A DNA stretch of 64,000 bases. Origin: Candidatus Iainarchaeum sp. (GTDB lineage Archaea > Iainarchaeota > Iainarchaeia > Iainarchaeales > UBA10219). The stretch spans positions 3,175 to 67,174 of the forward strand of contig JAGVWE010000006.1 of NCBI GenBank assembly GCA_018304425.1, given 5' to 3'. The notes below the pieces were generated by a model, which saw only the letters and a program-made list of their open reading frames with translations, made no database searches and was not told where the DNA came from. The translations under genes were made by a program, and so were the position numbers. Shown one piece after another: positions 14,610-49,962 of the stretch (its first letter is position 1; each line of letters begins with the position of its first letter).

Positions 14610-14610
14610 G

Positions 14611-15384: not shown

Positions 15385-15386
15385 CT

Positions 15387-16469: not shown

Positions 16470-17344
16470 GGAAGTTCCTTGGTAGATTGTAGGGCTTGCC
16501 AATTAAAAGGGTTTTTATGGCCCAAACAAAGGCGTATGCGTGCAAGCAAGCGGGTGAGACCCTCCAAAAAAGCGCACCCCAAGAGCAAGGGGGCTTCCAA
16601 GGGTCTTTCGGCCAGCAAACCATGGACGGCCTGGAAAAGGGGCGCAAAGCGGGTGGTGGAAGGCTGGTATCCGCGCCTGGCCAGCCAGTAGTGGCCCAAA
16701 TGAATGCGAACGCGTTGAGCCAAAATCTCCGATAACGTGTCCGGCCCCTTGTTCCGGACAATGGCTTGCGGGGCATAGGCGACCTTCAAGCCCCTGGCCT
16801 GGAAAAAGGACTCCAGCCAGGCCTCGTCCACCGCCGTATCCGGGGGAAGCTGCTTGACTTGGTTTCGGAAGCAAATCAGTTCCCCTGCCTTGGGCTGCAG
16901 CAGGGAAACCCGGTGATGCATTTCCCACAGGAACCAGGCAAAGTAACCTGAAAGCGTCCGGCGGGGGTTGACCGGAACCGGATGCGCTCCCACCAGGCCC
17001 ACGGCCGGGTTCGCCAGGCAGTCCAGCATCCCGGCAATCGCTCCCGGTTCAAGGAGGAGGTCGGCGCCTGCCAGGCAAACGATGTCGCCGGCACACCGGG
17101 AGAGGCCGAGGTTGACCGCACTGGCTTTTCCGAGTTTCTCCGGCTGGACCACCAACCCGATTTTTGGGTTGGCGGCTTGCGCACGCCGGACTTCCTGCAC
17201 GGTGTTGTCCGTGCAGCCGCTGGCCACGACCACGATTTCTTTCAAGGCATGCGGGCCCAGCCGCTGGGCCGCCACGCTCGCAAGCAGTCGGTAAATGTTC
17301 TTGCCCTCATTGTAGGCGGGAACAACAATGGAGAGGGTAGTCAT
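16466..17344 (-). CDS. Family 2 glycosyltransferase
   Basis: LSIVVPAYNEGKNI and VVVASGCTDNT match the GT2 signature. First gene of the coupled operon. Confidence 0.85.
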   Translation of the reverse strand: MTTLSIVVPAYNEGKNIYRLLASVAAQRLGPHALKEIVVVASGCTDNTVQEVRRAQAANPKIGLVVQPEKLGKASAVNLGLSRCAGDIVCLAGADLLLEPGAIAGMLDCLANPAVGLVGAHPVPVNPRRTLSGYFAWFLWEMHHRVSLLQPKAGELICFRNQVKQLPPDTAVDEAWLESFFQARGLKVAYAPQAIVRNKGPDTLSEILAQRVRIHLGHYWLARRGYQPSTTRFAPLFQAVHGLLAERPLEAPLLLGCAFLEGLTRLLARIRLCLGHKNPFNWQALQSTKELP

Positions 17345-17371: not shown

Positions 17372-18286
17372 CTAATACGGCCACTGCAAGTCATCCGACG
17401 ATATGACCCGGTAAAACCCGCTTTCCTCGGGCAACTGCCTGGGCCCCGTCCAGGCGTCCAAGAGGCTGCCGAACTGGCGCTGGGGGTAGAGCGGGCACAA
17501 CATCGTTTCGGGCAGGCTGGCCGCAATGCGGTCGGCATTGGGTTTGTCGAACACCACCTGCGCGCCCTCCCCCTTTGAACAGTAACTGAAGCCGTGACCG
17601 GGATACTGGCAACGCGCGCCCTCGCCCAGCCTTGGCACGCAGTCGCTGTCCGCGTAGCAGAGGAGCCGGGACTCGATGCGGAACAGGAAGGCCTGCCGGT
17701 CGTCCACGCACCAGCTGGTTACCTCCACGTCATGGGCCTTCATCTGCAGGGTGTAACCCTTGCCCTTCACGAGGTAGGGCACGAGACCACTCAGCTTGCC
17801 GGCTCCCACAAAGCCCTTGCCTGGGATTGCTTCCGCCATCAAGTCCCCGACTTCGTCGAAGAGCCTTGCCTCCAGCCGCTGGGGTTGCGGGACATACCGT
17901 GCCACGTCGTCCTTGATTCCGGGCCTGAGCTTTACGTGGAGGTCGCCGAGCCACCCGCTTTTCACGGCATTGAAGTTCACGGAATAGCCTTCAACGGGAA
18001 AGGACGCGGTGGTGCAGGCCTCTTCATACCGTTTCTCCATGCGGTAAGCCATGGGGGAAAGATCCAGGGGAACGGGCGCGCAACTACCCACCGCCAAACC
18101 GGACGAGGAACGCGCTGCGGGCAGGGTGGGCGGCAGGAAAAACAGGGAGAGCACGACGTATTCCAGCAGAAGCCCCGGCAACACGTATCCTAAGACCATC
18201 TTCTTCGCGCCTGCCTGGTTGCGCCCCCACCGGAAAACCGCATACGAGGCCGCGACAAAAAAAATGACTTCCAGGAGGATCATCAA
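17372..18286 (-). CDS. Two-TM-anchored extracytoplasmic Cys-rich protein (divergent paralog of 24038..24868 and 26540..27403)
   Basis: Two N-terminal hydrophobic helices and a TTG start. C-terminal DCVPRLGEGARCQYPGHGFSYCSKG resembles the C..P..TCHSYCK knot of the other two paralogs. Confidence 0.5.
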   Translation of the reverse strand: MMILLEVIFFVAASYAVFRWGRNQAGAKKMVLGYVLPGLLLEYVVLSLFFLPPTLPAARSSSGLAVGSCAPVPLDLSPMAYRMEKRYEEACTTASFPVEGYSVNFNAVKSGWLGDLHVKLRPGIKDDVARYVPQPQRLEARLFDEVGDLMAEAIPGKGFVGAGKLSGLVPYLVKGKGYTLQMKAHDVEVTSWCVDDRQAFLFRIESRLLCYADSDCVPRLGEGARCQYPGHGFSYCSKGEGAQVVFDKPNADRIAASLPETMLCPLYPQRQFGSLLDAWTGPRQLPEESGFYRVISSDDLQWPY

Positions 18287-18307
18287 CGAAACCTAGCATT
18301 AAAAACA

Positions 18308-18316
18308 TTTAAATTA
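18308..18316. promoter_or_regulatory. AT-rich tttaaatta element in 52-bp divergent intergenic region, candidate bidirectional TATA box
   Basis: Centred about 27 nt upstream of ATG 18339 and about 26 nt from the TTG start at 18286 on the other strand. Confidence 0.3.
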
Positions 18317-18338
18317 TGTTTCAGGGCCTCGGTTCTTC

Positions 18339-19619
18339 ATGTCCGCCTTCAACCGGAGGGAATGGCAAGCAATTACGGTAATCCTGGTGCTGGCGCTGAC
18401 TTTACGGGTTTTCACCGCCTGGCCGGACGCCCCCATCCCAAACCAGGCACAGATATTCCGCGGTTTTGACGAGACCTCCGTGTTCGAGTACATCGAGCAC
18501 TTCGTCCTTGAAAAAAGGCAGTTGCTCAACTACCCTTACCTCCAACAACCCCTGGGCCGGTATCACTGGTGGGCGGATGCCGGCCAGCCGCCCCTGTACT
18601 TTTTTCTGATGGCCTTGTTTGCGCAGGCCCTCTGCTGCATGGATGCCAACGGCTGGGTGCTGGCCCTGCACCTCCCAACCCTCGCTTTTTCGGTGCTGAC
18701 CGTATTCCTGGTCATGCACATCGCCAGACAGGTGTTCCCGAAACCCGGGTGGCTGGCGCTTGCGGCCGGCCTGTATGCGGCCCTGCAACCGACAAGGATA
18801 TTCTTGACCTCCAACCTCCACAACATTGGGCTGGCCTACTTCCTGGTAACGGTCTTCGTTTACTTCCTCGTCAAAAGACAAAAGCCCTTGACGCCCAGGG
18901 ACTTGTTCATCACCGGCCTCCTCATGGGCCTAGGAATCTGGACCCGCTACACGACGCTGGTAACGGTGCCATTTGCCGCCCTGTGGTTCTACCTCAACCG
19001 GCAAAGGCTGGGAAACTGGAAGAGAAACCTGGCACTGGCCTTGGGCGTGGCGTTGGTGGTGGCGTTGCCGCATTTCCTTTCCAACCTGGCGGTGTATGGC
19101 AAGCCGCTGTCCGCAGGCACGGCCGTTGCATTGACCGACTACCAGAAGCCTTCGCCTGGCTTGCCTACCTTGGAGGAATTTAAAACCATTCTCCCCGCCT
19201 TTTTCACGAGTTTCTGGTACCATAATCACCCCGCCACCGCCCTGTCCGAATACCCGGTGTATGCGGGGCTGCTGGTGTTTACCCTGCTTGCCCTTGCCGG
19301 CCTGGCCAAATACGTCCAGGAGCGGAAGGCCCTGGGGGCCCTGCCGTGGAACTTCTTCGTCAGCAGCCTGGCCATGTGCGGCGCCATCTTGTTGGTGTTG
19401 TTTCATGCGCTGATGACGACCTACTTCAACGCCGAAGGCCGGAGGCTGCTCAACGCCGTGCCCTCCGTAAGCATCTTCTTTCCCCTGGGGTTGTACTGGC
19501 TCGGCAAGGAGAAAAAGGTGGCTGGCTGGGACCTGGGGCTGCTGCTGGTGGCGGGATTGCTGCTGGTCATGGCCTACTTCAACTGGCAGACGTTTTTCGA
19601 CCCGGGCTTCGTCAAATAG
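18339..19619 (+). CDS. Polytopic membrane protein, probable GT-C-fold glycosyltransferase (ArnT/PMT-like)
   Basis: 10+ predicted TM helices. The first loop carries an FDETSVFEY acidic (DE) motif. Divergently paired with a Cys-rich protein gene. Confidence 0.5.
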   Translation: MSAFNRREWQAITVILVLALTLRVFTAWPDAPIPNQAQIFRGFDETSVFEYIEHFVLEKRQLLNYPYLQQPLGRYHWWADAGQPPLYFFLMALFAQALCCMDANGWVLALHLPTLAFSVLTVFLVMHIARQVFPKPGWLALAAGLYAALQPTRIFLTSNLHNIGLAYFLVTVFVYFLVKRQKPLTPRDLFITGLLMGLGIWTRYTTLVTVPFAALWFYLNRQRLGNWKRNLALALGVALVVALPHFLSNLAVYGKPLSAGTAVALTDYQKPSPGLPTLEEFKTILPAFFTSFWYHNHPATALSEYPVYAGLLVFTLLALAGLAKYVQERKALGALPWNFFVSSLAMCGAILLVLFHALMTTYFNAEGRRLLNAVPSVSIFFPLGLYWLGKEKKVAGWDLGLLLVAGLLLVMAYFNWQTFFDPGFVK

Positions 19620-19623
19620 GTTT

Positions 19624-19689
19624 GACGGGGGCCAGCGCGTGAAGGAACTGGTGGCGGTTTACGAGCAGGCTGCCCACCGCATTAGTTAG
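19624..19689 (+). pseudogene. Remnant of the 3' end of a GT4 gene (21 codons plus stop)
   Basis: A 22/22-nt identity (ggggccagcgcgtgaaggaact) and about 70% identity over 66 nt to the 3' end of GT4 gene 8431..9534 (9475..9534). Translates in frame as DGGQRVKELVAVYEQAAHRIS* versus DWGQRVKELEAVYQQAVKR*. Confidence 0.5.
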
Positions 19690-19704
19690 ACGGAAACGTA
19701 TAAC

Positions 19705-19712
19705 TTTAAATA
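19705..19712 (+). promoter_or_regulatory. Archaeal-type TATA box (tttaaata)
   Basis: Lies about 30 nt upstream of ATG 19742 and would give a near-leaderless transcript. Confidence 0.4.
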
Positions 19713-19741
19713 GGGCTTTGTGCATAGTATATAGGGCTTAC

Positions 19742-19948
19742 ATGGTATCCGTTGAAGTCACCGTGAAAAAGTGGGGGAACTCCCTTGGACTCATAATCCC
19801 CAGGGAAGCCTCTAAAAAGCTTGAATTGCGGGAAGGCAAGCGTGTGCGGGTCGAGTTGACGAGCGCTAAATTCGTGGATGCGTTCGGGTTATGCCGGGGA
19901 CTCAAGCCCTTCAAAAAAGAGGAATTGATAAGGGAACCCTATAGGTGA
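19742..19948 (+). CDS. AbrB/MazE (SpoVT-AbrB) family antitoxin-like protein
   Basis: MVSVEVTVKKWGNSLGLIIPRE is the swapped-hairpin signature. 68 aa from the ATG. The track ORF starts at TTG 19718. Confidence 0.7.
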   Translation: MVSVEVTVKKWGNSLGLIIPREASKKLELREGKRVRVELTSAKFVDAFGLCRGLKPFKKEELIREPYR

Positions 19949-19949
19949 G

Positions 19950-20336
19950 AAGCTGGATTACGTCATAGATACGAGCGCGTGGGTAGAATATCTGCTTGGT
20001 ACTTCGCGGGGGGGAAAAGTCAAGCACCTCTTGGAAACGCCAGGCAACCGATTTTTCACAATGGATTGCTGTGTGGCGGAAGTCTATGCATGGGCTAAAC
20101 GCCAAGGGGCTGATTTTGGAGAATTGCTGCGTGCCATTAAGTCGGATAGCTCAATCATTCAAGCAGATTTAAATGATTGGATTGAGGCAGCCGACCTCCG
20201 GGACGAGTTGCGGAAGGGAGGCGGAAAAACCAGCCTGATGGATGCAGTCCAAGTAATCATGGCAAGGCGATTAGGGGCCCGGAACCTCTCCGCCGACTAC
20301 GACTTCAAGCAAGTCAAGAAAGCCAAACTCATTTAA
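19950..20336 (+). CDS. PIN-domain VapC-like toxin; start codon uncertain or absent
   Basis: In-frame upstream of track ORF 20031..20336 lies KLDYVIDTSAWVEYL, the PIN N-terminal Asp motif, but with no canonical in-frame start. The only GTG (19945) is out of frame. The first in-frame start (TTG 20031) would delete the catalytic N-terminus. Confidence 0.5.
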   Translation, partial: KLDYVIDTSAWVEYLLGTSRGGKVKHLLETPGNRFFTMDCCVAEVYAWAKRQGADFGELLRAIKSDSSIIQADLNDWIEAADLRDELRKGGGKTSLMDAVQVIMARRLGARNLSADYDFKQVKKAKLI

Positions 20337-20401
20337 CCTCGATGTGGCACCGGAAATGAGGCCTCGAAGCGTTTTTATTGGGTTCCTGCCCAATTGATTG
20401 C

Positions 20402-21022
20402 ATGGAGTTCGAGTTCAAGGGCAACCGGTTGAAGTTCGACAAGGAACTGTCCAACCTTGACAAGCTGGTCTTAAAGTTCGTGAAGGTGCTGGACGCCCAG
20501 CACGTGGACTACGTCATCATCTCCGGCTACATCGCTATACTGTTCGGCCGCAGCCGCAACACGGAAGACGTGGACTTGTTCGTAGAGGAGATGCCCAAGG
20601 AACAATTCATCCTGTTGTGGAATGCCTTGGGCGAGGCCGGTTTCGAGTGCATCAACGCTGGGGCTGCTGAGAGCGCTTATGAGGAGTACCTAAAAGACCA
20701 GCTCGCCATCCGGTTCGCGGTCCTGGGGACGATCGAGCCTAATTTCGAACTTAAATTCCCGAAAACCAAGTATAACCGCTATTCGCTGAAAAACAAGCTT
20801 TTTGTCGAACTGAATGGTGAAGAATTGCGCACTTCGGAACTGGAGCTGCAAATCGCGTTCAAGCTCTATCTGGGAGCGGACAAGGATTTGGAGGATGCAC
20901 GGCATCTTTACAAGGTCTTTAAAGAACATCTAAACATAGGTTTAATGCAGGCCCACATCCAGGCGTTGGGCGTGGCAAAGCAAGCCGAGCGGATATTATG
21001 GAAAGACAAATACCAAAGCTGA
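20402..21022 (+). CDS. Minimal nucleotidyltransferase-fold protein (paralog of 23377..24018)
   Basis: YVIISGYIAILFGRSRNTEDVDLFV matches the GS...DxD NTase motif. About 206 aa from the internal Met. Confidence 0.5.
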   Translation: MEFEFKGNRLKFDKELSNLDKLVLKFVKVLDAQHVDYVIISGYIAILFGRSRNTEDVDLFVEEMPKEQFILLWNALGEAGFECINAGAAESAYEEYLKDQLAIRFAVLGTIEPNFELKFPKTKYNRYSLKNKLFVELNGEELRTSELELQIAFKLYLGADKDLEDARHLYKVFKEHLNIGLMQAHIQALGVAKQAERILWKDKYQS

Positions 21023-21219
21023 CCCCGAAGGACCGCCTGGAGATGGCGAAAGAGAAGCAGCGCAACATGCGACAGCGGATGGAATTCGTCGACCTGCACG
21101 CGGAATGGCTCCGGAAGACCCCCAACAAGGTGTGGAGCAAACAGCAGAAGGTCCTGCTGGACCCGTGAAAGCCGCTTTGCGAAGATTTTAAACGCTTTCC
21201 AAGGTAAATTCATTGCTGA

Positions 21220-22119
21220 TTGGAGGATTGGAACGTGAAGAAACCGTTGAAGGGAACCTGGAAGTTGAAGGAGGGCCTGGCCCAGATGCTGAAGGGCGGC
21301 ACCATCATGGACGTCGTGAACGCCGAGCAGGCGCGCATCGCCGAGAAGGCGGGAGCCTGCGCGGTCATGGCGCTTGAAAGGGTTCCGGCAGACATTCGCG
21401 CGGCCGGCGGGGTGGCGCGGATGGCCGACCCCAAGAAAATCAGGGAAATCATCCAGGCCGTGAGCATCCCAGTCATGGCCAAGTGCCGGATCGGGCATTT
21501 CGTCGAGGCCCAGGTGTTGCAGGAACTCGGCGTTGACTTCATCGACGAGTCGGAAGTGCTGACGCCGGCCGACGAGGCCCATCACGTGGACAAAAAGCGG
21601 TTTACCGTGCCCTTTGTCTGCGGGGCCCGAAATCTGGGGGAAGCCCTGCGGCGCATGAACGAGGGCGCGGCCATGATTCGAAGCAAGGGCGAGGCCGGCA
21701 CCGGCAACGTCGTGGAAGCGGTGCGGCACGTGCGCGCGATCAACGAGCAGGTTGACTTGTTGAAGCACATGGGCCTGCACCAGTTGGAAGAGCTGGCGCG
21801 GAATTACCGGGTGCCCCTGGAACTGGTGGAAAGGACGCGGGAAGCCGGGAGGCTGCTGGTCGTGAACTTTGCGGCCGGAGGCATCGCGACTCCCTCGGAT
21901 GCCGCGTTGATGATGCAACTGGGGTGCGACGGAGTTTTCGTGGGTTCGGGGATTTTCAAGGCCAAAAACCCCCAGAAGATGGCGAAGGCCATCGTGCTGG
22001 CAGTAACCCACTACAAGGACGCCAAGGTCTTGGCGAGGGTCTCCGAGGGCTTGGGCGAGGCCATGAAGGGCCAGGAGATTTCCAAGCTCGATGTGCGGCT
22101 GCAGGAACGAGGCTGGTAG
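21220..22119 (+). CDS. pdxS: Pyridoxal 5'-phosphate synthase, synthase subunit
   Basis: LKGGTIMDV and [23 protein letters not shown] are canonical PdxS/SNZ motifs. 299 aa. Confidence 0.95.
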
Positions 22120-22120
22120 C

Positions 22121-22711
22121 GTGAAGCGCGTCGGCGTGCTGGCGCTCCAGGGCGATTTCTTTGAGCACCTGCAAACCCTGAAGAAGCTGGGCGTCGAAGC
22201 CGCCGAGGTGCGGAACCAGGAGGACCTGGCGCAGGTGCAGGGCCTGGTCATTCCGGGCGGGGAGAGCACGACCATGTCCCAGTTGCTGGCCGAAACCGGG
22301 CTGGACCAGGCCATTCGCGCGCGCGCCAAGCAGGGCATGGCCGTGTACGGCACCTGTGCAGGCGCCATCTTGTTGGCGAAAAAGGTGTTGAACGACGGCG
22401 GGGTCAAGGGCCTGGGGCTCATGGACATTTCCGTGGAGCGGAACGCCTACGGCCGGCAAGTGGACTCCTTTGAAGCGGAACTGGAAGCCAACGGCCTGGG
22501 CAAGCTGAAGGGGGTTTTCATCCGCGCGCCGGTCATCCAGTCGGTGGGCAGGGGCGTGGAAGTGCTGGCCTCCCTGGACGGGAAGCCGGTGCTGGTGCGG
22601 CAGGGAAATTTGCTGGCGGGAACGTTCCACCCGGAAATTGAGGGCGAGGCCCGCGTGCACCAGTGGTTCGTTGAACGGTTAAAAGCTGAATCAACCAAAC
22701 ATAGGTTTTAA
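22121..22711 (+). CDS. pdxT: Pyridoxal 5'-phosphate synthase, glutaminase subunit
   Basis: GTG start immediately after the pdxS stop. VKRVGVLALQGDF ... GTCAG (catalytic Cys) ... FHPE matches class I glutamine amidotransferase. The track ORF starts at 22091. Confidence 0.9.
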   Translation: MKRVGVLALQGDFFEHLQTLKKLGVEAAEVRNQEDLAQVQGLVIPGGESTTMSQLLAETGLDQAIRARAKQGMAVYGTCAGAILLAKKVLNDGGVKGLGLMDISVERNAYGRQVDSFEAELEANGLGKLKGVFIRAPVIQSVGRGVEVLASLDGKPVLVRQGNLLAGTFHPEIEGEARVHQWFVERLKAESTKHRF

Positions 22712-22766
22712 CCTAATTGGGGGGAATCCACGCCCCCACGCAAGTTTCGAATTCTATCGAAACATA

Positions 22767-22774
22767 TTTAAATA
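22767..22774 (+). promoter_or_regulatory. Archaeal-type TATA box (tttaaata), about 26 nt upstream of ATG 22796 (leaderless)
   Basis: Seen directly in the sequence. Spacing to the ATG is typical of leaderless archaeal mRNAs. Confidence 0.4.
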
Positions 22775-22795
22775 TGGTGAGATACAAATAGAAAC

Positions 22796-23380
22796 ATGTT
22801 GGAGCGTGACTTGGTTTACCTGGAACTGCTTTCCCAGCCGAGGGGCACGAGACTGACTCAGTTGGGGCTCTCCAAGGCATTGGGGGTTTCGCTGAGCACG
22901 GTGAACAACGCCTTGAAGCCGTTGCGCAAGATGGGGGCCGTGACCATCCGGCCGCGCAGCCTGGAAGTCAGCGACTCCGAGCGCGTGCTCCTCCACTTCG
23001 GCTCCTGCAGGGACCCTGCCAAAGACCTCCGGTACCAGACCCGCGTAGAAGCAGGGCCCATGGAAACCGAACGCTCGATGCCTTCTGGCGTCGCATTCAC
23101 GGCTTACTCGGGTTACCGGCTGCGATTCAGGGAAGCGCCGGCCGACTATGGAGAGGTCCTGGTTTATGCAGACGAGAAAACGTTGGAGGAAATCAGGCGC
23201 CGGTTCCCGGAAAAGAGGGGGCCGCCAAATGTCTTCGCTTTCTTGGCAGACAAACGCCTCCTGGCACGGTGCACGGATAGCGTCGTGCCGGACGCGTTGC
23301 TGTTCGCGGACCTCTGGAACCAGCGGGAATGGTATGCCCGTGAATTCCTGAACGCGCTCAAAAAGAGGCTGGCACCGTGA
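22796..23380 (+). CDS. Winged-helix DNA-binding regulator-like protein
   Basis: LTQLGLSKALGVSLSTVNNALKPL is an HTH segment near the N-terminus. 194 aa. Its stop overlaps the start of the downstream NTase gene (ATGA-type). Confidence 0.6.
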   Translation: MLERDLVYLELLSQPRGTRLTQLGLSKALGVSLSTVNNALKPLRKMGAVTIRPRSLEVSDSERVLLHFGSCRDPAKDLRYQTRVEAGPMETERSMPSGVAFTAYSGYRLRFREAPADYGEVLVYADEKTLEEIRRRFPEKRGPPNVFAFLADKRLLARCTDSVVPDALLFADLWNQREWYAREFLNALKKRLAP

Positions 23381-24018
23381 AAGAGTTTTGGCCAGAAATC
23401 GTCACGAAGGCAAGCTGGGAGGAACTCCAGCGCCTGGCGAAGGAAATGGACTTCGTGCTCATTGGCGGCTGGGCTGCCTACTTGTGGACGGACCAACACA
23501 AGTCCAGGGACATCGACCTCATCGTAAGCCATGAAATGCTTGCCCGCCTCAAGGAGCGATATGAGTTGGTGAAAAACGCGCGCCTCAAGAAATACGAGAT
23601 AAAGCGCGGCGAATTCGATGTCGATGTGTACGTGCCCTTCTTCTCCCCCCTCGTGGTTCCCCCCGAAGACATTCTGGCGCGGCACCATACGCGCATCCGG
23701 GGCATCCAAGTCGTTTCCCTGGAAGCCCTCCTGGTCCTCAAGCAGGCCGCTTACCTCGACCGCCGGGGCAGCATCAAGGGAAAAAAGGACGAAATCGACC
23801 TCTTGACGCTCCTCTTATATGCTTCGCCTGATTGGACGCGTTACCTGGGCCTCCTCAAAGAATATGGCAAGCAGTCCTACGCGGAAAGCCTCCTCCAAAC
23901 CGTCAGGGAAGCCCATGCCGAGGACTTGGACTACTTGGGAATCCCGTTCAAGGACTTCAAGGCATGGCAGAAAAGGACGGTCAAGGAGTTGGCTGCCCGG
24001 TTCTCGCGACGCGGCTGA
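23377..24018 (+). CDS. Minimal nucleotidyltransferase-fold protein (paralog of 20402..21022)
   Basis: FVLIGGWAAYLWTDQHKSRDIDLIV is a GG...DxD NTase motif. 213 aa. Translationally coupled to the upstream wHTH gene. Confidence 0.5.
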   Translation: MKEFWPEIVTKASWEELQRLAKEMDFVLIGGWAAYLWTDQHKSRDIDLIVSHEMLARLKERYELVKNARLKKYEIKRGEFDVDVYVPFFSPLVVPPEDILARHHTRIRGIQVVSLEALLVLKQAAYLDRRGSIKGKKDEIDLLTLLLYASPDWTRYLGLLKEYGKQSYAESLLQTVREAHAEDLDYLGIPFKDFKAWQKRTVKELAARFSRRG

Positions 24019-24037
24019 TGCGTCCATTCTTTGCAGT

Positions 24038-24868
24038 TCACTTTGAGCAGGCCGCATAGCCCGGCAGTCTCGTCACTTCTTCCATGGCCTTGACGGGTTC
24101 CACCGTGAACGCCCCGCCGAAGTCGTGCTTGCAGTAGCTGTGACAGGTTTCCGGGAACTGGCAGGAGTCGGTGGAGGCTGGGAGGCCGTCCTCGCATGGC
24201 GCGTTCGAACGGCACCGCACGAAGCAGGTGAGTTGCCATTCCGGCACGCCCAGGGGGGTCTTGCAGGGCTTGAAACCGGCAGGCCGTTCCTTCATCCGTC
24301 CTTCGAGGTAGTAGGTTTTGCCGGCTTCGAGGGAAAGCGGTTGCCCGGCCGGGGTCTGGAAGTGGTTTTGGTCCTGGGCGTAGGAGCCGAGCAGGCGATG
24401 GGCTTCGTCCGCAAGGGAGAAGTCATACCAGCCGGCGAGGCTCCAGAAGCGGCTGGCCTGGCCTTTTTGGTAGACGCCTTTGACGAGGGGCTCGGAGGGG
24501 ATACCCGTTTTCCGGGGTTGGAAGCGGAGGGAGTACTCTTTTTCGAAGTTCATGGTTTCGTTGCAGGCTTCACCGGTTTCGATGGGAAGGGTTAAGGCGA
24601 GGGCTTGGAAGGAGGCATCGTTGAGGCCTGGGCAGGCGGGGTTGCCGGAGAGGCCTTGGAGGGAGTCAGAGAAGTGCAGGGGCTTGTCGAGGGAGTAGAG
24701 GAACCAGGCGTGGGAGGCCAGGGCGGCCAGCAAGAGGAGGGGAACCGCGAGGGCCAGGGCTTTGAGGAACCTTCGGCGGTTTTGGTGGATTAAGTCGAGG
24801 GGAATCGTGAGCACGGCGAACAGCAAGGCGTAGACGAGGAGGGTTTTGAGGAGTTCGGGGAGCGGCAT
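24038..24868 (-). CDS. Two-TM-anchored extracytoplasmic Cys-knot protein (paralog 1)
   Basis: Trimmed to Met-68 of track ORF 24038..25069, because the upstream part overlaps the GT-C gene out of frame. Two N-terminal TM helices. C-terminal LTCFVRCRSNAPCEDGLPASTDSCQFPETCHSYCKHD. Confidence 0.55.
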   Translation of the reverse strand: MPLPELLKTLLVYALLFAVLTIPLDLIHQNRRRFLKALALAVPLLLLAALASHAWFLYSLDKPLHFSDSLQGLSGNPACPGLNDASFQALALTLPIETGEACNETMNFEKEYSLRFQPRKTGIPSEPLVKGVYQKGQASRFWSLAGWYDFSLADEAHRLLGSYAQDQNHFQTPAGQPLSLEAGKTYYLEGRMKERPAGFKPCKTPLGVPEWQLTCFVRCRSNAPCEDGLPASTDSCQFPETCHSYCKHDFGGAFTVEPVKAMEEVTRLPGYAACSK

Positions 24869-24869
24869 G

Positions 24870-26552
24870 TCAGTTGCCTCCCGTTGGCTGGATGAATTCG
24901 TAGAGCGAGGCGTCCAAGCCCAAGTCCGTGTAGGACGCGCGCAGCTGGAACGACGCGGGGTTGGAGCGCGCATAGTCGCGGATGGCCGTGACCTCGTTCC
25001 AGGAACCATTGTAGGCGAGGACGTAGAGGGGCTTTCCCTCCAAGCGGTCCAAGTGCTTGACAAAGTCATCCAGGGGATAGGCCTTCACTTTTAGGGCGTG
25101 TTTCCGGTCGTAGGGCAGCAGGTAGGCGCCGAAGGAGGGCGCGTTGAAGTTGTCGCTGGTGGTGCCGAACACGATTTCGCTGCCGGGGGGGAGGTCGCGG
25201 GCGAGTTGCCGGGCAATGGAGTCCAGGGCCAGGTACTCCTTTTCATGGTCGATGAATGAACCCACCGTCCGGTTTTCGGGCCAGGGCAGGAACTGGAAGA
25301 CGTCAGGGAAAGCCGTGGAAAGCGTGAGCAACAGGACGAGGGCAAGCAGGAAGAGGTTCCGGTTCCCTGGATTCAGCCCCATTTTTTGGAGTCGCTTCAC
25401 GAGCCATTCGAACATCACGCCAGCCGAAATGGTGAGCAAGGCCAGGATGGAGAAAATGAACCGGATTTCCTTGTTGCGGACGAGCAGGAACGGAACGAAC
25501 AAGGCAAGCAACGCGAAGAGGAGGAACAGCCATCGCCGGGTCATCCTTTTCTCCCCTCCCATCAGATAGCGTCTGCGAATCAACAGCAGGCCCCCCAGGC
25601 TGAGCAGGAAAAGCGGGAGATTGAAGGAATTCAGGATGACGGAGGGATAGATTTCCCAGGCTTCCAGCCGGGTAATCGGCGGGTTGTAGTCCGTGTTGTA
25701 CGTGCCGCTTCGGAAGGTGAGCTGGTCCAGCACGGAATGCACGAGGAAGTCTCGTTGGGGCTCCGTGAGGGCGCCTGACGTGGCAAAGACGAGGAGGGCG
25801 GCAACGTACAAGAGGAAGGCGCAGAGGCCGGCCAGGGGCAAAAAGAATCTTTTGCGCTGGCGTCCGTCAAAGCCGCTGGACAGCAGGAGATAGCCGTATG
25901 CAACCGGAAAAAACAGCAACCCGATGTACTTGGTAGTGGAGGCGAGGAACGCGAGCACGGTGCAGGCCAGCAGGTTTTTGTCGAATTTCTTGCCGAACAG
26001 GGAAATGCGTTGATTGCATTTATGGGCTTTGAGGAAATAATAGAAGGCTGCCACCATGAAAAAGGCTACGGGCACATCCAATAGGGCTTTGCTGCCCACA
26101 ATCAAATAGGCTGGGACGAGGGACAAGAATACCGCGGCCGCAATTCCAACGGTTCGGTTGAAGAGCACCCAGCCCAGCTTGAAGACATAGTAGAGGAAGG
26201 CCACCGTGAAAAGGGCGGCCAACAACCGGACCGTGAAAAGGCTGGGGCCCAGTAACAAAAACGCGAGTGCGGAAATAAGGGGGTGCGCAAGGGGATAACT
26301 GAAGGCAGGCGCGATGTTTGGATAAGCGGCAAGGAATGCCGTGAAATAGTTGCCGAACCAGGAAGGCGAAAGGCTTTGCGGCAACTGGTGGAAGGCGTCC
26401 CGCGCGAGGTCGCTGAAGTAGAAGCCGGCCAGGGTGTGCGTGCCCTCATCCCAGGTCAGGGGAATGTTCAACCCCACGTACAACGAGAGCAGGGCGTAGC
26501 CGAGCAGGTAGAACTTGAACCAGTGCACGGGGTTTTTGGTCAAGGAAAGCAC
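24870..26552 (-). CDS. GT-C-fold membrane glycosyltransferase, PMT/ArnT (GT39/GT83-like) family
   Basis: TWDEGTHTLAGFYF is the DE motif in the first extracytoplasmic loop. About 11 TM helices plus a C-terminal soluble domain. Clearly homologous to 43018..44691. Confidence 0.7.
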   Translation of the reverse strand: MLSLTKNPVHWFKFYLLGYALLSLYVGLNIPLTWDEGTHTLAGFYFSDLARDAFHQLPQSLSPSWFGNYFTAFLAAYPNIAPAFSYPLAHPLISALAFLLLGPSLFTVRLLAALFTVAFLYYVFKLGWVLFNRTVGIAAAVFLSLVPAYLIVGSKALLDVPVAFFMVAAFYYFLKAHKCNQRISLFGKKFDKNLLACTVLAFLASTTKYIGLLFFPVAYGYLLLSSGFDGRQRKRFFLPLAGLCAFLLYVAALLVFATSGALTEPQRDFLVHSVLDQLTFRSGTYNTDYNPPITRLEAWEIYPSVILNSFNLPLFLLSLGGLLLIRRRYLMGGEKRMTRRWLFLLFALLALFVPFLLVRNKEIRFIFSILALLTISAGVMFEWLVKRLQKMGLNPGNRNLFLLALVLLLTLSTAFPDVFQFLPWPENRTVGSFIDHEKEYLALDSIARQLARDLPPGSEIVFGTTSDNFNAPSFGAYLLPYDRKHALKVKAYPLDDFVKHLDRLEGKPLYVLAYNGSWNEVTAIRDYARSNPASFQLRASYTDLGLDASLYEFIQPTGGN

Positions 26553-27403
26553 TCCCGGTATTCGGGTGAGGCTTTGACGAGGGCTTCGGCTTGGGCTGGT
26601 CTCGTGGTGAACTTCGTGCCGGTATCGTTTTTGCAGTAGGAGTGGCAGGTGCCAGGATAGATGCAGGTATCCGTGGTGTACGGGTTGTCGTCATAGCAGT
26701 CCGGGGCCTGGCCGCAGAAAACAGCGCAGCCCAGGACCATCACGGGCTGGTTGTCTTGTCGGGGGCAGACTTTTACGCCGGAAGGCCTTTCAAGCATTTG
26801 CAGGGCAAGGGTGTAGGTCTCGTCTTTGGAGAGGAACACCGCATCCAAATTCTTTGCAGGGGATTCAAAGTAGCCGAGGCCATGGTTGAAGGTGCCCAAG
26901 AGGGTGCCGCTTGAATCGTAGAGGCGCGCGTCATAGGCGTAGCGGAGGCCGAACGCTTTTGCTTCCTGTCCACGCTGATAGGCTGCGATGGTGGCTGGCT
27001 CGCCGGCAAAACCGCTTCGGGCGATGCGGAGGGCAAACGAATAGGTTTTTTCGAAGTGGGCCAGGGCATCACAGTCGGTGCCGGTGCTTAGGCCCTGGGT
27101 GAGACCAAGCTGACCCTGGGGCATGCCTTTGGGGGATGGTTCAAGGGAGGGACAAAAGCCGGGCAAACCGGCCAGCGTATACAGGGGGTCCGGGTACTGC
27201 CGGAGCTTGACCGCATTCGCGTACAACCCCAGCAGCATAACCACCACGAGGAGAACGGCTGGCAGCCCGTATAAGAGGAGTTTGGGGCGCAGCCTTCGAT
27301 GTCTTTGGGCGAGAAAAAACATCGGTAAAAGGACTGCCAGCAAGAGGGCCACGAAAAGCAGTAACTCGATCAAGCAACCACGTGAAACGACAAACTGCAG
27401 CAC
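26540..27403 (-). CDS. Two-TM-anchored extracytoplasmic Cys-knot protein (paralog 2)
   Basis: Collinear with paralog 1: HFEKTYSFALRI, YQRGQEAKAFGLRY and LGCAVFCGQAPDCYDDNPYTTDTCIYPGTCHSYCKND. Confidence 0.55.
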   Translation of the reverse strand: MLQFVVSRGCLIELLLFVALLLAVLLPMFFLAQRHRRLRPKLLLYGLPAVLLVVVMLLGLYANAVKLRQYPDPLYTLAGLPGFCPSLEPSPKGMPQGQLGLTQGLSTGTDCDALAHFEKTYSFALRIARSGFAGEPATIAAYQRGQEAKAFGLRYAYDARLYDSSGTLLGTFNHGLGYFESPAKNLDAVFLSKDETYTLALQMLERPSGVKVCPRQDNQPVMVLGCAVFCGQAPDCYDDNPYTTDTCIYPGTCHSYCKNDTGTKFTTRPAQAEALVKASPEYRECFP

Positions 27404-27629
27404 ATAAAGCCGGAAACTGTTTTAAAGGATTTGGTGGCTTTATCCGTCGTGAAAGCGCATCAGATCGTGTTGGTCTTGGCCGCCTTCCTCCTCTTGGCTT
27501 ATGCCCATTTCGTTTTGACGCCAACGGAGCCAGGAGCCTCCTACAAGGCGGTTTCCTTGAACCCCAAGAAAACCACGTTGGAGCGTTGCCAGGGCCCGGG
27601 CCCCGAGTGCAACCTCGTGGAAGTCGAAG

Positions 27630-28835
27630 TCAAAAAAAGTAGTAGTGGGCGAGAAAGGCCAGCAGGATGAGGTAAGCGGGGCCATACAGATAGTGCGGGC
27701 TCCGCTTGAATCGTTCAGCGAATTGTTTCAAGCCGAGCAGGAAGAAGGCGGGGGCGAAGGGAATGAAGTCCAGCCAGCGCCGACCGTATTGGGCGAAACC
27801 CACTGGCACTTCGTAGGTGAGTTGCCAGAACACCATGACGGCAAAGACCGTGAGGCCGCCCAGCAGGAACGCCCGCTGGATTTGGCTGTGCGCCCGGAAG
27901 CGTGCAAGGAACAACGCGAAGCCCAGCAGGGAAGCCAGGGCCAGCAGGAACAAGGCCGCATAGAGCGCCGGGGGCGCGCTGAGTTTGGGGTCGAATTGGT
28001 TGAAGAAGTAAACGAACAAGCTGCGCAAGTAAGCCCCAATAGCGGCAGGCGTTTTTGGCACGAGTTCCAGGAAAACCGCGGTGGGCAATAAGTTTCCCGT
28101 GGATTGCTTGAAAAAAAGCATTAAGGCAAGGCTGGGAACCGCCACCACGGAGAGAAACAGCAGTCCCTGCTTGATGCCGCGCCCCCAGGCATTGGATTGA
28201 ACCTTGTTCTTGTACGCGAACAGGCTTACCGCCAGCGGAATGCTGGTAAGGGTAGTCAAATGCGTTAGGGCCAGGAGAATGGAGAGCACTGCAATGGCCA
28301 TCACTTTAGCGGTGGTGAACGCTTTTTGCCAGTTCCTGAGAAGCAGGTAGACGAGGAGGGGGTAGAGGAAGTAGACCAGGGCATAGTTGTTGGCGGTCGT
28401 GGAAAAGTAGACGTGCGTGGGCCACACGGCGAGAAACAACGCGGTTAAAATGGCAAAGGAGTGGCTGAACACTTGCTTGAGGGCATGGTAGCTGAAGGCG
28501 ATTCCGGCCACGCCAAGCAAAATGGAGAATAGCTTGAGCACCAGGAGTTGCTGGGGAAGCGCCAACGCCGTGGTCCAGAGCAGCAGGCTGGCGCCGACAA
28601 CGTAGTAGAGCGGGGGATGGAAGGCCATGATGTAGTCGCCGCCCTTTGCATTGTCCAGCGTAAAGAGGGTTTTCTCCAGGGCCACGTGCGTCATGTACTG
28701 GAGGCTCGAACCCTCATCCTGGTTGCCCACCATTTGGCCGACCTGGCTGAAGGGAAAGGGCAAAAGCGCGACCCGTAAGAGAAAAGCGAAGAAGAGGACA
28801 AGTGCAAGGGTTTTTTGCTCCCGGGTCAAAGACAT
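27630..28835 (-). CDS. Polytopic membrane protein, GT-C-like (DE motif)
   Basis: QMVGNQDEGSSLQYMTHVALE is a DE motif in loop 1. 401 aa with more than 10 TM helices. Confidence 0.55.
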   Translation of the reverse strand: MSLTREQKTLALVLFFAFLLRVALLPFPFSQVGQMVGNQDEGSSLQYMTHVALEKTLFTLDNAKGGDYIMAFHPPLYYVVGASLLLWTTALALPQQLLVLKLFSILLGVAGIAFSYHALKQVFSHSFAILTALFLAVWPTHVYFSTTANNYALVYFLYPLLVYLLLRNWQKAFTTAKVMAIAVLSILLALTHLTTLTSIPLAVSLFAYKNKVQSNAWGRGIKQGLLFLSVVAVPSLALMLFFKQSTGNLLPTAVFLELVPKTPAAIGAYLRSLFVYFFNQFDPKLSAPPALYAALFLLALASLLGFALFLARFRAHSQIQRAFLLGGLTVFAVMVFWQLTYEVPVGFAQYGRRWLDFIPFAPAFFLLGLKQFAERFKRSPHYLYGPAYLILLAFLAHYYFF

Positions 28836-28890: not shown

Positions 28891-30189
28891 TTATTTTTTG
28901 AGCAGGGAAACGATTTGCAATACCACGATGACTGCTCCTATCACTACTAGGACGAGGACTAATGGAGAGGACCAGAGGTCTTGGGTGGGGGGAGGGGTTG
29001 CTTGGCCGCCGACGACTTTGAGGCAGATGCCGCCCTGGCAGCTGGCGCCTTCCGCGCACTTGGTGCCGTCGATGGCGGCCGCGTACGCGCAGGCATTGTC
29101 TTTACAGAGGTCAATGGTGCAGGGGTTGTTGTCGTTGCAGGAAAGGCCGCCGCAGAGTGCTTGGCTGACGACTAGTTGCTTGCCAGGGAGCTCCGCGGTT
29201 TCCTTTTCCTCAACCGGGACGGTTTCCTTGGTCTCGGCAGGCTCCGGGGAAGCAGGTTCGCTTGCCGCTGCGCCTTCGCACGCGCCTTCCCTACATACAC
29301 CCACGCTGCAGGCGATGCCGTTCGGCAGGGGCCCAGTCACGCATTGGCCTTCAAAGCAGCCGTCGGCCGTGCACTCGTTGCCGTCGTCGCAAACGATGTT
29401 CTCACAGGAGGGCTTTGCGCCTGAGTCGTCGAACAAGGCGTAGGGGGTTTCGGCTGCGTTCACCGTGAAGGTCACCGAATTGGTTATATGGTTTAGAACG
29501 AAACCGCTGATTTCCTGCCAGGAATCGTTCTTGAATTTGAATGGCTTGATGGTTTTTTCGCTGACCTTGACCTGGCTCTCATCATAATTGAGTGTGATGG
29601 TGGGCTGCACGCTGCCTTGAATGGAAATTTCGTAGCCAGTCAGGAAATGCCACTCCGGGGCCATAGAATCCAGTTCCGGCAGGGCCGTGGTTATTTTTTC
29701 TATTTTTCCCAATTGTGCCTTGGTTTCCTTTTCGCTGGAAAGCGCAATCTGCAAATCCGAGCCGAAAATCAGGATTTGCGGCTTGGTGGGGCTCACCGAA
29801 ACTTCTTTTATGCCGGCTTCGATAGCCTGCTGGGCGGATATTTCCACAGGCACCGACAAATCAAGTTTCAGGCTGGCTCCATTGTCGAACTTGATGGTTT
29901 CATTCGCTTTAATGCCGTTTACAAAAAACTCTACCGTCGTATTCCGTCGCACACCATCTGGGTCACGGATGAAAAACAAGGCCGGGCTATAGCCATATTT
30001 GCTTTGGTACACGCCGCCATTGGCGACTTCCTGTCCATCGATGCGCGCCGAGACCAGCATACCGTCCAGGGCAGGGCCGTTCAAGAATTTGACTTCCCCG
30101 AAGTATTGGGCCGGCACGCCCGGAATGGCGTATGCGAGGCCAAAAAAGAATAATACCAACGCCAAGGGCAGGAGGTGCTTGATATTCAT
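28891..30189 (-). CDS. Secreted cell-surface protein with Cys-rich repeats and C-terminal membrane anchor
   Basis: N-terminal signal peptide. Two CxDxNxCTxDxC-type Cys-rich repeats, a Pro/Glu/Thr linker, then C-terminal TM LVLVLVVIGAVIVVLQIVSLLKK. Confidence 0.6.
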   Translation of the reverse strand: MNIKHLLPLALVLFFFGLAYAIPGVPAQYFGEVKFLNGPALDGMLVSARIDGQEVANGGVYQSKYGYSPALFFIRDPDGVRRNTTVEFFVNGIKANETIKFDNGASLKLDLSVPVEISAQQAIEAGIKEVSVSPTKPQILIFGSDLQIALSSEKETKAQLGKIEKITTALPELDSMAPEWHFLTGYEISIQGSVQPTITLNYDESQVKVSEKTIKPFKFKNDSWQEISGFVLNHITNSVTFTVNAAETPYALFDDSGAKPSCENIVCDDGNECTADGCFEGQCVTGPLPNGIACSVGVCREGACEGAAASEPASPEPAETKETVPVEEKETAELPGKQLVVSQALCGGLSCNDNNPCTIDLCKDNACAYAAAIDGTKCAEGASCQGGICLKVVGGQATPPPTQDLWSSPLVLVLVVIGAVIVVLQIVSLLKK

Positions 30190-43012: not shown

Positions 43013-43017
43013 GAAAA

Positions 43018-44691
43018 TCACTTGACCCCATACAGCTCTATTGTTTCACCGTTTCTTTGACTAAACGCCTTAACTAATTCAAAACCTTGGCTTCCCTTAA
43101 CCTTTTGCCATAAATGCCCTTGATTTCCATCGTATAAAACAATGTATACCGGCAACCCTTTTCCTTTTAATCCCTGTACTCTGCGGTCGAATTCGTTAAC
43201 TGGGAATTCCGTTACCTTTCGTGAATGTCGCCTGTCATACTTAAGCGTGTAAAAAGAGAAATTAACCCAGTTCACCCGAATGTCATGCGAGGCAAGAATC
43301 ACCGCTGAATTGTCCGGAAAACTGTCAACAACGTATTTTGCTATATTGTCCAGATCTATCGTTGAGTAGCTGTTAGCATACGTGAAGATTGTCTCCTGCT
43401 TGTTCCCGACCAGCACAAAAGAGGGCAAGGCCACTGAAAGAATTAACAGAAACAGAATCTTCCGTTCATGGCCAACGAAAAACGTTTTCGCCAGCGAATT
43501 CGCTTCATTGAAGGCAACCAAGAAAAAAGCGGCAATCATCGGAAAGACAAACCTTGGCTCCTTGTTCGGAATAAGCGTAAAAACAACGAAGTAAACGGCG
43601 GTTAGTACAAGCAAAACCCGGGCAGCCGGATTTTTGTTTCTAAAAGCCCCATACAAACCAACCAAGCCAATCAAGAAAAGAGGCCAGTTTGCCACTTCAA
43701 GCAGAGCAACGAGGTAAAAAGCGATAACCCTTGCACCCATCGAAGAGATAGCGGATGAAGCGGAAAGTTTTTCGCTGCCTGGCAAAAGCCAGCCAAGAGT
43801 ATTTCCAATCAATGTTCCCCTCTCGGTTGAGTCCTCGGGAAAAAAGCCTGCAAACACGAGAACAAGTGCCAAGTAAAGCAAAAAACCGAGAAAGGCGCAG
43901 CCAAGAATTCTAACATTCTTCTGCCTCAAAAACACAAACGACCGGTGCTTGAGTAATAAGTAGAAGAATATTATTGGGAAAACCAGGGCAGCCGGAAACT
44001 TGATCATTGAACCAAGAAAGGCAGAGGCCGCTGCAAGAAAAGCGGGCCTGTTCAAACCTGATTGCTCGCTTTTCAGGAAATAATAAAGTGTTGCGAGAAC
44101 TGCAAAAGTCGAAGGGACATCCCGCATAATTAAAACAGAATGCTGCAGGAAAATAAAGCTCAGAGAAAAAGCCACGGTCGAAGCAATGGCGGCCGCCCTG
44201 CCAAATACTTGTCTGCCAAGCTTGTAAACAAAAACCAAGGCCAAAAACGAAAAAACCGTTGAAACGATTCTTGCAGCAAAGTCATTAACCCCAAACGCAG
44301 CAAACGAAGCAGCCATAACAAGTGCATACGCTGGCGGATAATTGAAGCCAGAGGAAAAGATTGCAAAGTAATTGGAAATATAACCGTAAACATATGTATA
44401 CAGCCAAGTGCCTGAAAGGCTTGTTGGCAGAGAATTCAAGAAATCTTTTGCAAGGTCATACACGAATATGCCCGCAATGGTGTGGCTACCTTCATCCCAC
44501 GTCAAAGAAAGATTGGATGCAAGTAAGAAAGTGAACACAGAGTAAGCAAAAAGATAGCCTATAAGAGCAGTCTCCGCCTTATGTACAATGCCATGGTTGC
44601 TGGCAATGGCGCCAAAATAGGCTCGTACCCTTTCAATAGAATTCATAGTTTCCCTGCCCCACCGTTGCCAAGAGTGAATGGTAATGGTCAT
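43018..44691 (-). CDS. GT-C-fold membrane glycosyltransferase, PMT/ArnT-like (paralog of 24870..26552)
   Basis: LTWDEGSHTIAGIFVYDL is the DE motif. More than 11 TM helices plus a C-terminal soluble domain. Lower-GC sequence. Confidence 0.7.
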   Translation of the reverse strand: MTITIHSWQRWGRETMNSIERVRAYFGAIASNHGIVHKAETALIGYLFAYSVFTFLLASNLSLTWDEGSHTIAGIFVYDLAKDFLNSLPTSLSGTWLYTYVYGYISNYFAIFSSGFNYPPAYALVMAASFAAFGVNDFAARIVSTVFSFLALVFVYKLGRQVFGRAAAIASTVAFSLSFIFLQHSVLIMRDVPSTFAVLATLYYFLKSEQSGLNRPAFLAAASAFLGSMIKFPAALVFPIIFFYLLLKHRSFVFLRQKNVRILGCAFLGFLLYLALVLVFAGFFPEDSTERGTLIGNTLGWLLPGSEKLSASSAISSMGARVIAFYLVALLEVANWPLFLIGLVGLYGAFRNKNPAARVLLVLTAVYFVVFTLIPNKEPRFVFPMIAAFFLVAFNEANSLAKTFFVGHERKILFLLILSVALPSFVLVGNKQETIFTYANSYSTIDLDNIAKYVVDSFPDNSAVILASHDIRVNWVNFSFYTLKYDRRHSRKVTEFPVNEFDRRVQGLKGKGLPVYIVLYDGNQGHLWQKVKGSQGFELVKAFSQRNGETIELYGVK

Positions 44692-49924: not shown

Positions 49925-49962
49925 CCACTGGAAACTTGGCAAAATTGTATTGCTTAAATTGG

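Follow-up and report, generated by a model that had tools for sequence, protein, structure and literature searches.

Gene organisation of the locus

A stretch of 64,000 nucleotides, referred to here as the window, from the metagenome-assembled genome of a DPANN archaeon of Candidatus Diapherotrites (assembly GCA_018304425.1, contig JAGVWE010000006.1) carries three genes for small cysteine-rich membrane proteins, each lying next to a gene for a polytopic membrane glycosyltransferase of the GT-C type. We name the small proteins CysA, CysB and CysC (collectively the Cys-proteins) and the GT-C genes GT1 to GT4; these numbers apply to the window and do not denote CAZy families, which are always written here as GT2-family or GT4-family. 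CysC is 100% identical to the NCBI protein J4203_07040, which is encoded on a contig of 135 kb. Comparison of the sequences indicates that the pairing of Cys-protein and GT-C is a genuine gene partnership, albeit a very rare and uncharacterised one.

An earlier reading, made from the letters of this DNA alone (the sequence-only reading), had described the genes as three separate pairs, and all six of its open reading frames (ORFs) were found at the coordinates it gave. CysA (17372..18286, minus strand, 304 residues) and GT1 (18339..19619, plus strand, 426 residues) are divergent and separated by a 52-nt gap. The other genes share the minus strand: GT3 (27630..28835, 401 residues) lies 226 nt upstream of CysC (26540..27403, 287 residues from a GTG start; the NCBI protein has 277 residues and starts 10 codons further downstream), and this is followed by GT2 (24870..26552, 560 residues) and, directly 3' of it, by CysB (24038..24868, 276 residues). 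GT2 starts before the CysC stop, with an overlap of 13 nt or, if the TTG at 26543 is the start, of 4 nt; GT2 and CysB stand 1 nt apart, as had been noted, with a GGAGG 8 nt upstream of the CysB ATG. The tightest unit is CysC-GT2-CysB, whose codons overlap or abut. The division into three pairs is thus right insofar as each Cys gene adjoins a GT-C gene, but it misses the three-gene unit and sets GT3, 226 nt away, on a par with it.

GT4 (43018..44691, minus strand, 557 residues) lies outside this module, between an AsnB-like gene and a gene for a GT4-family glycosyltransferase, and has no Cys-protein neighbour. If the ~58 genes of the window were placed in random order, all three Cys genes would each adjoin one of the four GT-C genes with P=0.002, and the linkage is not due to chance. 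In the gap between GT3 and CysC (27404-27629), the sequence TTTAAAA stands some 20 nt ahead of the GTG of CysC and may be an archaeal TATA box giving CysC-GT2-CysB a promoter of its own.

The Cys-proteins as a family

The three Cys-proteins had been proposed to be paralogs of a family that the sequence-only reading did not recognise, with two N-terminal transmembrane (TM) helices, and this description has held well. CysB and CysC are homologous over their full length (33% identity over 259 residues, BLASTP E=1e-38). CysA is the distant one, matching CysC by BLASTP in its C-terminal 131 residues only (E=1e-6) and CysB at E=0.07. Aligned to a hidden Markov model (HMM) of the four-member family, CysA is collinear over model positions 30-273, that is from TM2 to the last cysteine, and scores 35.8 bits with E=1.6e-10 (hmmsearch of 515 window ORFs, with the runner-up ORF at 5.9 bits); profile alignment by hhalign gives 95.9% probability and E=5.8e-9 over 235 columns. 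These comparisons indicate that CysA, CysB and CysC are truly related, with CysA as a diverged paralog that has stayed collinear. Mutual similarity confined to cysteine spacing, which the sequence-only reading had named as an outcome that would refute it, is not what the alignments show. The family is covered by no model in Pfam or NCBIfam, and neither CysB nor CysC matched either collection even at E<=1 or 0.1.

The architecture of the family begins with a hairpin of two TM helices joined by a basic loop, on which hydropathy and the AlphaFold2 (AF2) model of CysC agree (helices at residues 8-34 and 36-68; hairpin encoded at 27200..27382, minus strand, with the loop QRHRRLRPK). The corresponding loops of the other two paralogs read QNRRRFLK and RWGRNQAGAKK, and basic loops of this kind would, by the positive-inside rule, place the Cys-rich C-terminal part outside the cell. 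The full-length model of CysC (predicted local distance difference test, pLDDT, of 75) comprises the hairpin, a linker of low confidence (residues 66-99) and an ectodomain that is well modelled. Modelled by itself (pLDDT 85; predicted template modelling score, pTM, 0.81), the ectodomain folds into an eight-strand beta-sandwich (residues ~111-212; 26768..27073, minus strand), after which come the Cys unit and a short helix at the C-terminus; the sandwich is of a generic kind, and fold searches with this model returned no significant relative. CysA has the same hairpin, then a beta-sandwich that contains an insertion, a Cys unit in degenerate form and an extension of 40 residues at the C-terminus. 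Among the four full-length members, conservation is highest in the Cys unit (49%) and the tail (43%), intermediate in the sandwich (36%) and the hairpin (32%), and lowest in the linker (22%). A proline in TM2 is invariant across the family, and so is F-T-x-x-P (F265, T266 and P269) in the tail after the Cys unit.

Three other assignments of the Cys-proteins were considered and rejected. A twin-arginine translocation (Tat) signal in CysB was suggested by N-R-R-R-F-L-K (residues 30-36, window ~24760-24780), which scores 15.8 bits against the TIGR01409 cutoff of 16.7; the motif comes after the first TM helix, and the twin arginine is absent in CysA and in the two homologs from elsewhere that are introduced below (P0003 and P0004). 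A Wzz-like polysaccharide co-polymerase would have two TM helices flanking a large periplasmic domain, whereas the Cys-proteins have theirs side by side at the N-terminus, ahead of the ectodomain; no Wzz Pfam model matched. A thioredoxin-like oxidoreductase was rejected on topology and fold, the model having neither a thioredoxin/DsbA-type fold nor a CxxC redox motif.

The GT-C enzymes

The large partners had been read as PMT/ArnT-like GT-C enzymes, and this assignment stands for most of them on formal criteria. Against the PMT_2 model (PF13231, gathering cutoff 26.1 bits), GT1, GT2 and GT4 pass with 38.5, 43.4 and 64.4 bits; GT2, as the only one of the enzymes, also passes PMT (PF02366, 34.3 bits), and it passes Glyco_transf_22 (32.1 bits). 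GT3 stays below the PMT_2 cutoff with 19.7 bits but is a homolog of GT1 (tblastn E=3e-16). The GT1/GT3 type in turn aligns with a profile of the GT2 type (hhalign 94%, E=1.3e-7), and GT4 is a paralog of GT2 (tblastn E=8e-52).

Hydropathy scans show about 6-11 or more hydrophobic segments in GT1, GT2, GT3 and P0107 (a relative of GT3 from another genome, discussed below), and all are polytopic. In these same four proteins, the first extracytoplasmic loop, which follows TM1, contains an invariant D-E (18468-18473 in GT1, 28713-28718 in GT3), and in four sequences of the GT2 type it forms part of an invariant W-D-E-G-x-H-T (WDEG at 26445-26450 in GT2). GT1 and GT3 are minimal enzymes of about 400 residues that lack a soluble domain, and GT2 ends in an extracytoplasmic domain of ~140 residues. 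Among PDB sequences, phmmer and profile searches returned no solved GT-C relative at E<=1; no enzyme matched the MIR domain at E<=1, and they are not GT39 PMT proper. Judged by these profiles, the enzymes are new and very divergent members of PMT_2/GT-C.

Rarity of the family and its linkage in other genomes

The family is exceedingly small. When 1.84 billion cluster representatives were searched exhaustively by HMMER, a profile built from two ectodomains found four full-length members, namely CysC, CysB, P0003 (E=1e-57) and P0004 (E=9e-51), together with the fragment P0006. CysA did not reach E<=1e-3 in this library-wide search, and its sole database relative is a 98%-identical copy (P0103). 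Word-indexed homolog searches with full-length CysC and with the CysA ectodomain each matched only the query itself, probably because of the TM-helix words and the divergence of the family, and the family pattern, scanned against GTDB genomes and JGI metagenomes, retrieved only multi-unit repeat proteins (L004-L006) and no family members. One further trace is a CysC-like gene on contig L003 (2-643), broken by an in-frame stop into two 102-residue ORFs, which is either a pseudogene or the product of an assembly or sequencing error. A further locus, L008, belongs to the window's own organism.

The sequence-only reading had called for a survey of gene neighbourhoods across archaeal and CPR genomes and had taken its proposal to fail if homologs elsewhere were never linked to GT-C genes. 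Such a survey places the family essentially in this one lineage, and the linkage recurs there: both full-length homologs from elsewhere directly adjoin a GT2 ortholog, their codons overlapping with it. On L001 (2.2 kb), the gene after P0003 is a truncated GT2 ortholog (48% identity, E=1e-92), the two overlapping by 1 nt. On L002 (4.2 kb), a 562-residue GT2 ortholog (39% identity, E=6e-112) is followed by P0004 with a 4-nt overlap. P0003 and CysC are reciprocal best matches and both lie upstream of the enzyme; P0004 and CysB are reciprocal best matches and both lie downstream. The orthologous Cys-proteins are 33-39% identical and have kept their position relative to the GT2-type gene, and hence the arrangement is older than the split between these organisms.

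Apart from self matches, the only relative of the GT1/GT3 type is P0107, which is 44% identical to GT3 and is encoded on L007. This contig belongs to a related organism whose glycan island is rearranged (a methyltransferase there is 72% identical to that of the window). About 260 nt after P0107, L007 carries a gene cut by the contig end, of which the 57 residues present form a two-TM hairpin. Scored with the Cys HMM among ~1,200 ORFs, this hairpin is the top non-family scorer (12.2 bits, E=0.006), and it has the family pattern Y-x-x-P...YLN; the match is weak and only suggestive of a Cys-protein beside a GT3 ortholog. No DNA overlap joins the cut gene to L003 or to other contigs. The external loci come from GCA_041643015.1, GCA_041643075.1, GCA_041643115.1 and ERZ27254846.

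Taken as a whole, the GT-C link is specific to the narrow two-TM family and holds wherever its neighbours are visible. The family is genetically and positionally, and probably also translationally, coupled to PMT_2-type GT-C genes and has diversified alongside them; in at least three organisms, its genes would be co-transcribed with a GT-C gene. Such parallel diversification is seen in the window, where GT1 and GT3 are paralogs and the best match of CysA is CysC.

The six-Cys unit belongs to a widespread repeat

The C-terminal cysteines of the family had been described as a conserved knot. The pattern, C-x3-C-x5-C-x10-C-x5-C-x3-C, is exact in CysB (CFVRCRSNAPCEDGLPASTDSCQFPETCHSYC, 24131..24226, minus strand) and CysC (CAVFCGQAPDCYDDNPYTTDTCIYPGTCHSYC, 26633..26728, minus strand), and CysA has a degenerate copy (SRLLCYADSDCVPRLGEGARCQYPGHGFSYC, 17579..17671, minus strand) that lacks the first and fifth cysteines and keeps the other four. 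The joint loss of Cys1 and Cys5 suggests that these two form a disulfide in the intact unit. The pattern is, however, no signature of a novel fold. Apart from the family itself, the other ~97 library matches of the ectodomain profile cover positions ~164-200 only, the stretch that corresponds to the units of CysB and CysC, and do so 2-27 times per protein. These matches are large, non-polytopic proteins (median length ~900 residues, up to 27 units) in which units of ~36 residues with the identical cysteine pattern follow one another head to tail, as in P0010 (CQVNCNSNNDCSDGNPSTTDTCLDAGNCNSRCSNTN); some also have CARDB or PKD domains, and they are probably secreted or exposed at the surface. 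Given its recurrence in ~97 large proteins, the supposed knot is a single copy of a widespread Cys-rich repeat module.

No curated model describes this repeat at threshold. The nearest is Dicty_CTDC (PF00526, cutoff 27 bits), which reaches 20.1 bits in P0037 and 21.5 bits in a 432-residue Cys-rich protein encoded near GT3 (see below); no NCBIfam model matched the repeat proteins. Dicty_CTDC-like repeats, of the type C-x-D-x-N-x-C-T-x-D-x-C, share the core D-C-x-D-x-N-x-x-T-x-D-x-C with the unit of CysB and CysC, the difference being that Dicty_CTDC-like proteins carry arrays and CysB and CysC one unit each.

The distant multi-unit relatives whose surroundings were inspected, P0027, P0042 and P0045, occupy another conserved neighbourhood and have no GT-C neighbours. 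In several metagenomes (L009-L013, for example L010 2497-10061), a phosphoglucomutase/phosphomannomutase gene is followed by overlapping genes for two or three large Cys-repeat proteins and then by genes for a ~405-residue protein with no assigned function and for KaiC-like ATPases (DUF7504). Hidden GT-Cs were considered among the 403-409-residue neighbours and ruled out by their few TM segments and by the absence of any profile match. The Cys-proteins are a very small, undescribed family, essentially confined to one lineage and built in part from a common repeat unit.

A glycan-biosynthesis context

Most of the window is given to the biosynthesis of cell-envelope glycans. The region at 7-19 kb holds GT2-family enzymes, a GT4-family enzyme, a phosphodiesterase, a methyltransferase, an epimerase of the short-chain dehydrogenase/reductase superfamily, two genes that could not be assigned and a radical S-adenosylmethionine (radical-SAM) enzyme with a SPASM domain. 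At 33-57 kb follow a Wzx-like flippase, many GT4-family and GT2-family enzymes, methyltransferases, a UDP-N-acetylglucosamine (UDP-GlcNAc) 2-epimerase, AsnB and a GT2-family enzyme resembling AglJ and dolichyl-phosphate hexose transferases (53465-54148). Within this island, 42000-54000 has a GC content of 0.45-0.48 against ~0.60 in the flanks, which suggests a horizontally acquired or fast-evolving surface-glycan cassette.

Genes of the kind that would supply a lipid-linked sugar accompany the GT-C genes elsewhere too. On L002, the gene lying divergently upstream of the GT2 ortholog encodes a GT2-family enzyme of 286 residues that has TM helices at its C-terminus and, over its full length, is matched best by AglJ/dolichyl-phosphate hexose transferase; on L007, a Wzx-like flippase adjoins P0107. 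In the window, both the synthase-like gene and the flippase gene are present at a distance of 5-25 kb. By analogy, this context would fit glycosylation at the outer face of the membrane that depends on dolichyl-phosphate (Dol-P) monosaccharides, as in the AglD/AglR/AglS system (PMC3871713) or in bacterial three-component systems (PMC11127046).

CysA heads a partly overlapping run of genes on the same strand (13299-17344, minus strand), made up of a GT2-family glycosyltransferase (16466-17344) of a type different from the AglJ-like synthase, the radical-SAM/SPASM enzyme (15387-16502) and two ORFs that match no family (14611-15480 and 13299-14651). It is curious to find a SPASM maturase close to a Cys-rich protein. 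Between CysA/GT1 and the run GT3-CysC-GT2-CysB stand PdxS/PdxT (21220-22711) and two probable toxin-antitoxin-like pairs on the plus strand (20031-21022 and 22796-24018), one combining a PIN-domain protein with a DUF2204 nucleotidyltransferase and the other a helix-turn-helix protein with an AbiEii-like nucleotidyltransferase.

On the other side, the gene next upstream of GT3, after a 55-nt gap, encodes the 432-residue Cys-rich protein (28891-30189, minus strand), which has C-D-D-x-N-x-C-T-x-D-x-C motifs and a C-terminal TM anchor. A 9-nt gap further upstream lies the gene of an 811-residue protein (30199-32634, minus strand) that has an Ig-like domain of the Big_5 type and numerous N-x-S/T sequons. 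These two putative surface proteins are candidate targets of glycosylation.

Possible roles of the Cys-proteins

The reading that we favour, and that we put forward as tentative, is that the Cys-proteins are type-specific, non-catalytic membrane partners of Dol-P-sugar-dependent GT-C enzymes in Diapherotrites-like archaea. A GT2-family enzyme resembling AglJ or AglD would make the Dol-P-sugar donor, a Wzx/AglR-like transporter would flip it, and the GT-C would transfer a single sugar at the outer face of the membrane to a target that may be a protein, a glycan or a lipid. The hairpin of the Cys-protein would dock on the polytopic enzyme within the membrane, and its ectodomain would project outside the cell as a flexible linker of ~40 residues, a beta-sandwich of ~100 residues, one six-Cys unit and a short helical tail. 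Acting in trans, the sandwich and the Cys unit would either keep the acceptor, be it a surface glycan or a glycoprotein, in place at the active site or lend stability to the enzyme. That the hairpin is nearly as well conserved as the sandwich (32% against 36%), with its invariant TM2 proline, speaks for such a role. The broader proposition, that some archaeal GT-Cs are hetero-oligomers with dedicated, type-specific non-catalytic subunits supplying acceptor binding in trans, seems to us doubtful.

Several observations weigh against a partner role. GT4 has no Cys neighbour and PMT_2 enzymes are generally solitary, so a partner is no general requirement of such enzymes, and the term obligate, which the sequence-only reading had used for a possible accessory subunit, does not hold for the paralog of GT2. 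GT2 already possesses a C-terminal soluble domain of its own. Among the 102 library matches, no Rosetta-stone fusion of a Cys ectodomain with a GT-C was found, and the similarity of the sandwich to carbohydrate-binding modules (CBMs) is not significant. The external evidence comes from three short metagenomic contigs of one assembly series, possibly from closely related populations, and that from L007 is weak.

The same tight gene linkage is equally expected of an enzyme and its substrate. In pilin/TfpO-type pairs, the enzyme and its target are encoded together, and the Cys-proteins could likewise be membrane-anchored surface glycoproteins that the adjacent GT-C glycosylates, for instance on the F-T-(T)-x-P stretch or on the linker. 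The flexible linker of 40 residues and the invariant F265, T266 and P269 just after the Cys module offer candidate sites, the Cys unit itself is typical of large, non-polytopic and probably secreted or surface-exposed repeat proteins, and GT2 scores above threshold with models for protein O-mannosyltransferases (PMT and PMT_2). However, the dedicated acceptor of the sequence-only reading finds little support in the proteins, which share no N-glycosylation sequon conserved in position among family members and have no Ser/Thr-rich region, their content of these two residues (11-12%) being ordinary. A conserved two-TM hairpin with an invariant proline would be unneeded in a mere substrate, two different Cys-proteins flank the single GT2, and three or four polytopic enzymes for three small paralogs would be uneconomical; we consider an acceptor role rather unlikely.

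It is also conceivable, if unlikely, that the Cys-proteins are independent envelope proteins, small surface or adhesion proteins that sit in a glycan island, with adjacency in other genomes reflecting recent common ancestry. Genes of glycan biosynthesis crowd both sides of the module, two larger surface proteins directly precede GT3 on its strand, the external loci all stem from one metagenome assembly series, and the distant multi-unit relatives are not linked to GT-Cs. Nevertheless, the stop/start overlap persists in three organisms whose GT2 orthologs are 39-48% identical and whose Cys-protein orthologs are 33-39% identical, and the genes around it differ, as shown by the upstream neighbour of the enzyme on L002 and by the rearrangement of L007 relative to the window; the P value for the three adjacencies in the window points the same way. 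We regard as highly improbable a role in folding or export, in which the Cys-proteins would be membrane-tethered chaperones or quality-control factors for large Cys-repeat proteins nearby, such as that at 28891-30189. Such a role could draw on the core C-[DN]-D-x-N-x-x-T-x-D-x-C common to them and the neighbouring 432-residue protein, and on the run of same-strand genes from 32634 to 24038, but fold searches returned no thioredoxin/DsbA-type match for the model, which also lacks CxxC, and on L001 and L002 the family is linked to GT-C and not to a large Cys-repeat protein.

The importance of the system is tempered by the extreme rarity of the family and by the genomic nature of all the evidence, a real and conserved signal with few short external contigs. 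Were the Cys-proteins substrates after all, they would offer a compact and defined acceptor for O- or N-glycosylation by PMT_2-type enzymes in archaea, whose archaeal acceptors are almost entirely unknown.

Comparison with known glycosyltransferase systems

The enzymes of the window resemble GT-Cs of the PMT/ArnT/AglS type in being polytopic, in the D-E of the first loop and, for GT1, GT2 and GT4, in their PMT_2 scores. We know of no prokaryotic PMT_2/GT-C member described with a dedicated two-TM partner protein, and literature searches found no published description of a conserved arrangement of this kind. Prokaryotic GT-Cs such as AglB, PglB, ArnT, PMT and the GtrC type are generally treated as single-subunit enzymes, and non-catalytic partners as a eukaryotic hallmark. 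In the oligosaccharyltransferase (OST), the catalytic subunit Stt3 works together with the non-catalytic Ost1, Wbp1 and Swp1. PIG-M/PIG-X (= Gpi14/Pbn1) is another eukaryotic GT-C with an essential accessory membrane subunit (PMC9306709). Both resemble the gene pairing described here in combining a GT-C with a small membrane-anchored protein that has a lumenal or extracytoplasmic domain; in the eukaryotic enzymes, this protein is needed for stability or function. PIG-X/Pbn1 and the OST subunits are single-pass proteins, whereas the Cys-proteins have an N-terminal hairpin, and no sequence similarity or significant structural similarity of the Cys-proteins to these subunits was detected. If the partner reading is true, the Cys-proteins would provide a prokaryotic case of a multi-subunit GT-C organisation so far known from the eukaryotic OST and GPI-mannosyltransferase I.

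As regards the pathway, the nearest archaeal parallel is the AglD/AglR/AglS system of Haloferax, which carries out a mannosylation step at the outer face of the membrane (PMC3871713); the likeness is that the GT-C genes of the window lie amid AglJ-like GT2-family and Wzx/AglR-like flippase genes. The proposed pathway shares with three-component systems (GtrA/B/C; GT136 ORF12, PMC11127046) the logic of a GT2-family polyprenyl-phosphate-sugar synthase, a flippase and an outer-face GT-C that modifies a surface glycan, with the difference that synthase and flippase are not consistently adjacent here. In the GT136 enzyme ORF12, as in EmbA/B/C and AftD, a beta-strand-rich CBM in cis binds the acceptor (PMC11127046), and this module is the closest functional analogy for the beta-sandwich of the Cys-proteins, which resides instead on a separate, hairpin-anchored polypeptide together with a disulfide-rich unit. 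If the analogy is true, a GT-C would here have outsourced its CBM to a second polypeptide, and the locus would offer a simple system for studying how acceptor recognition or stabilisation is delegated.

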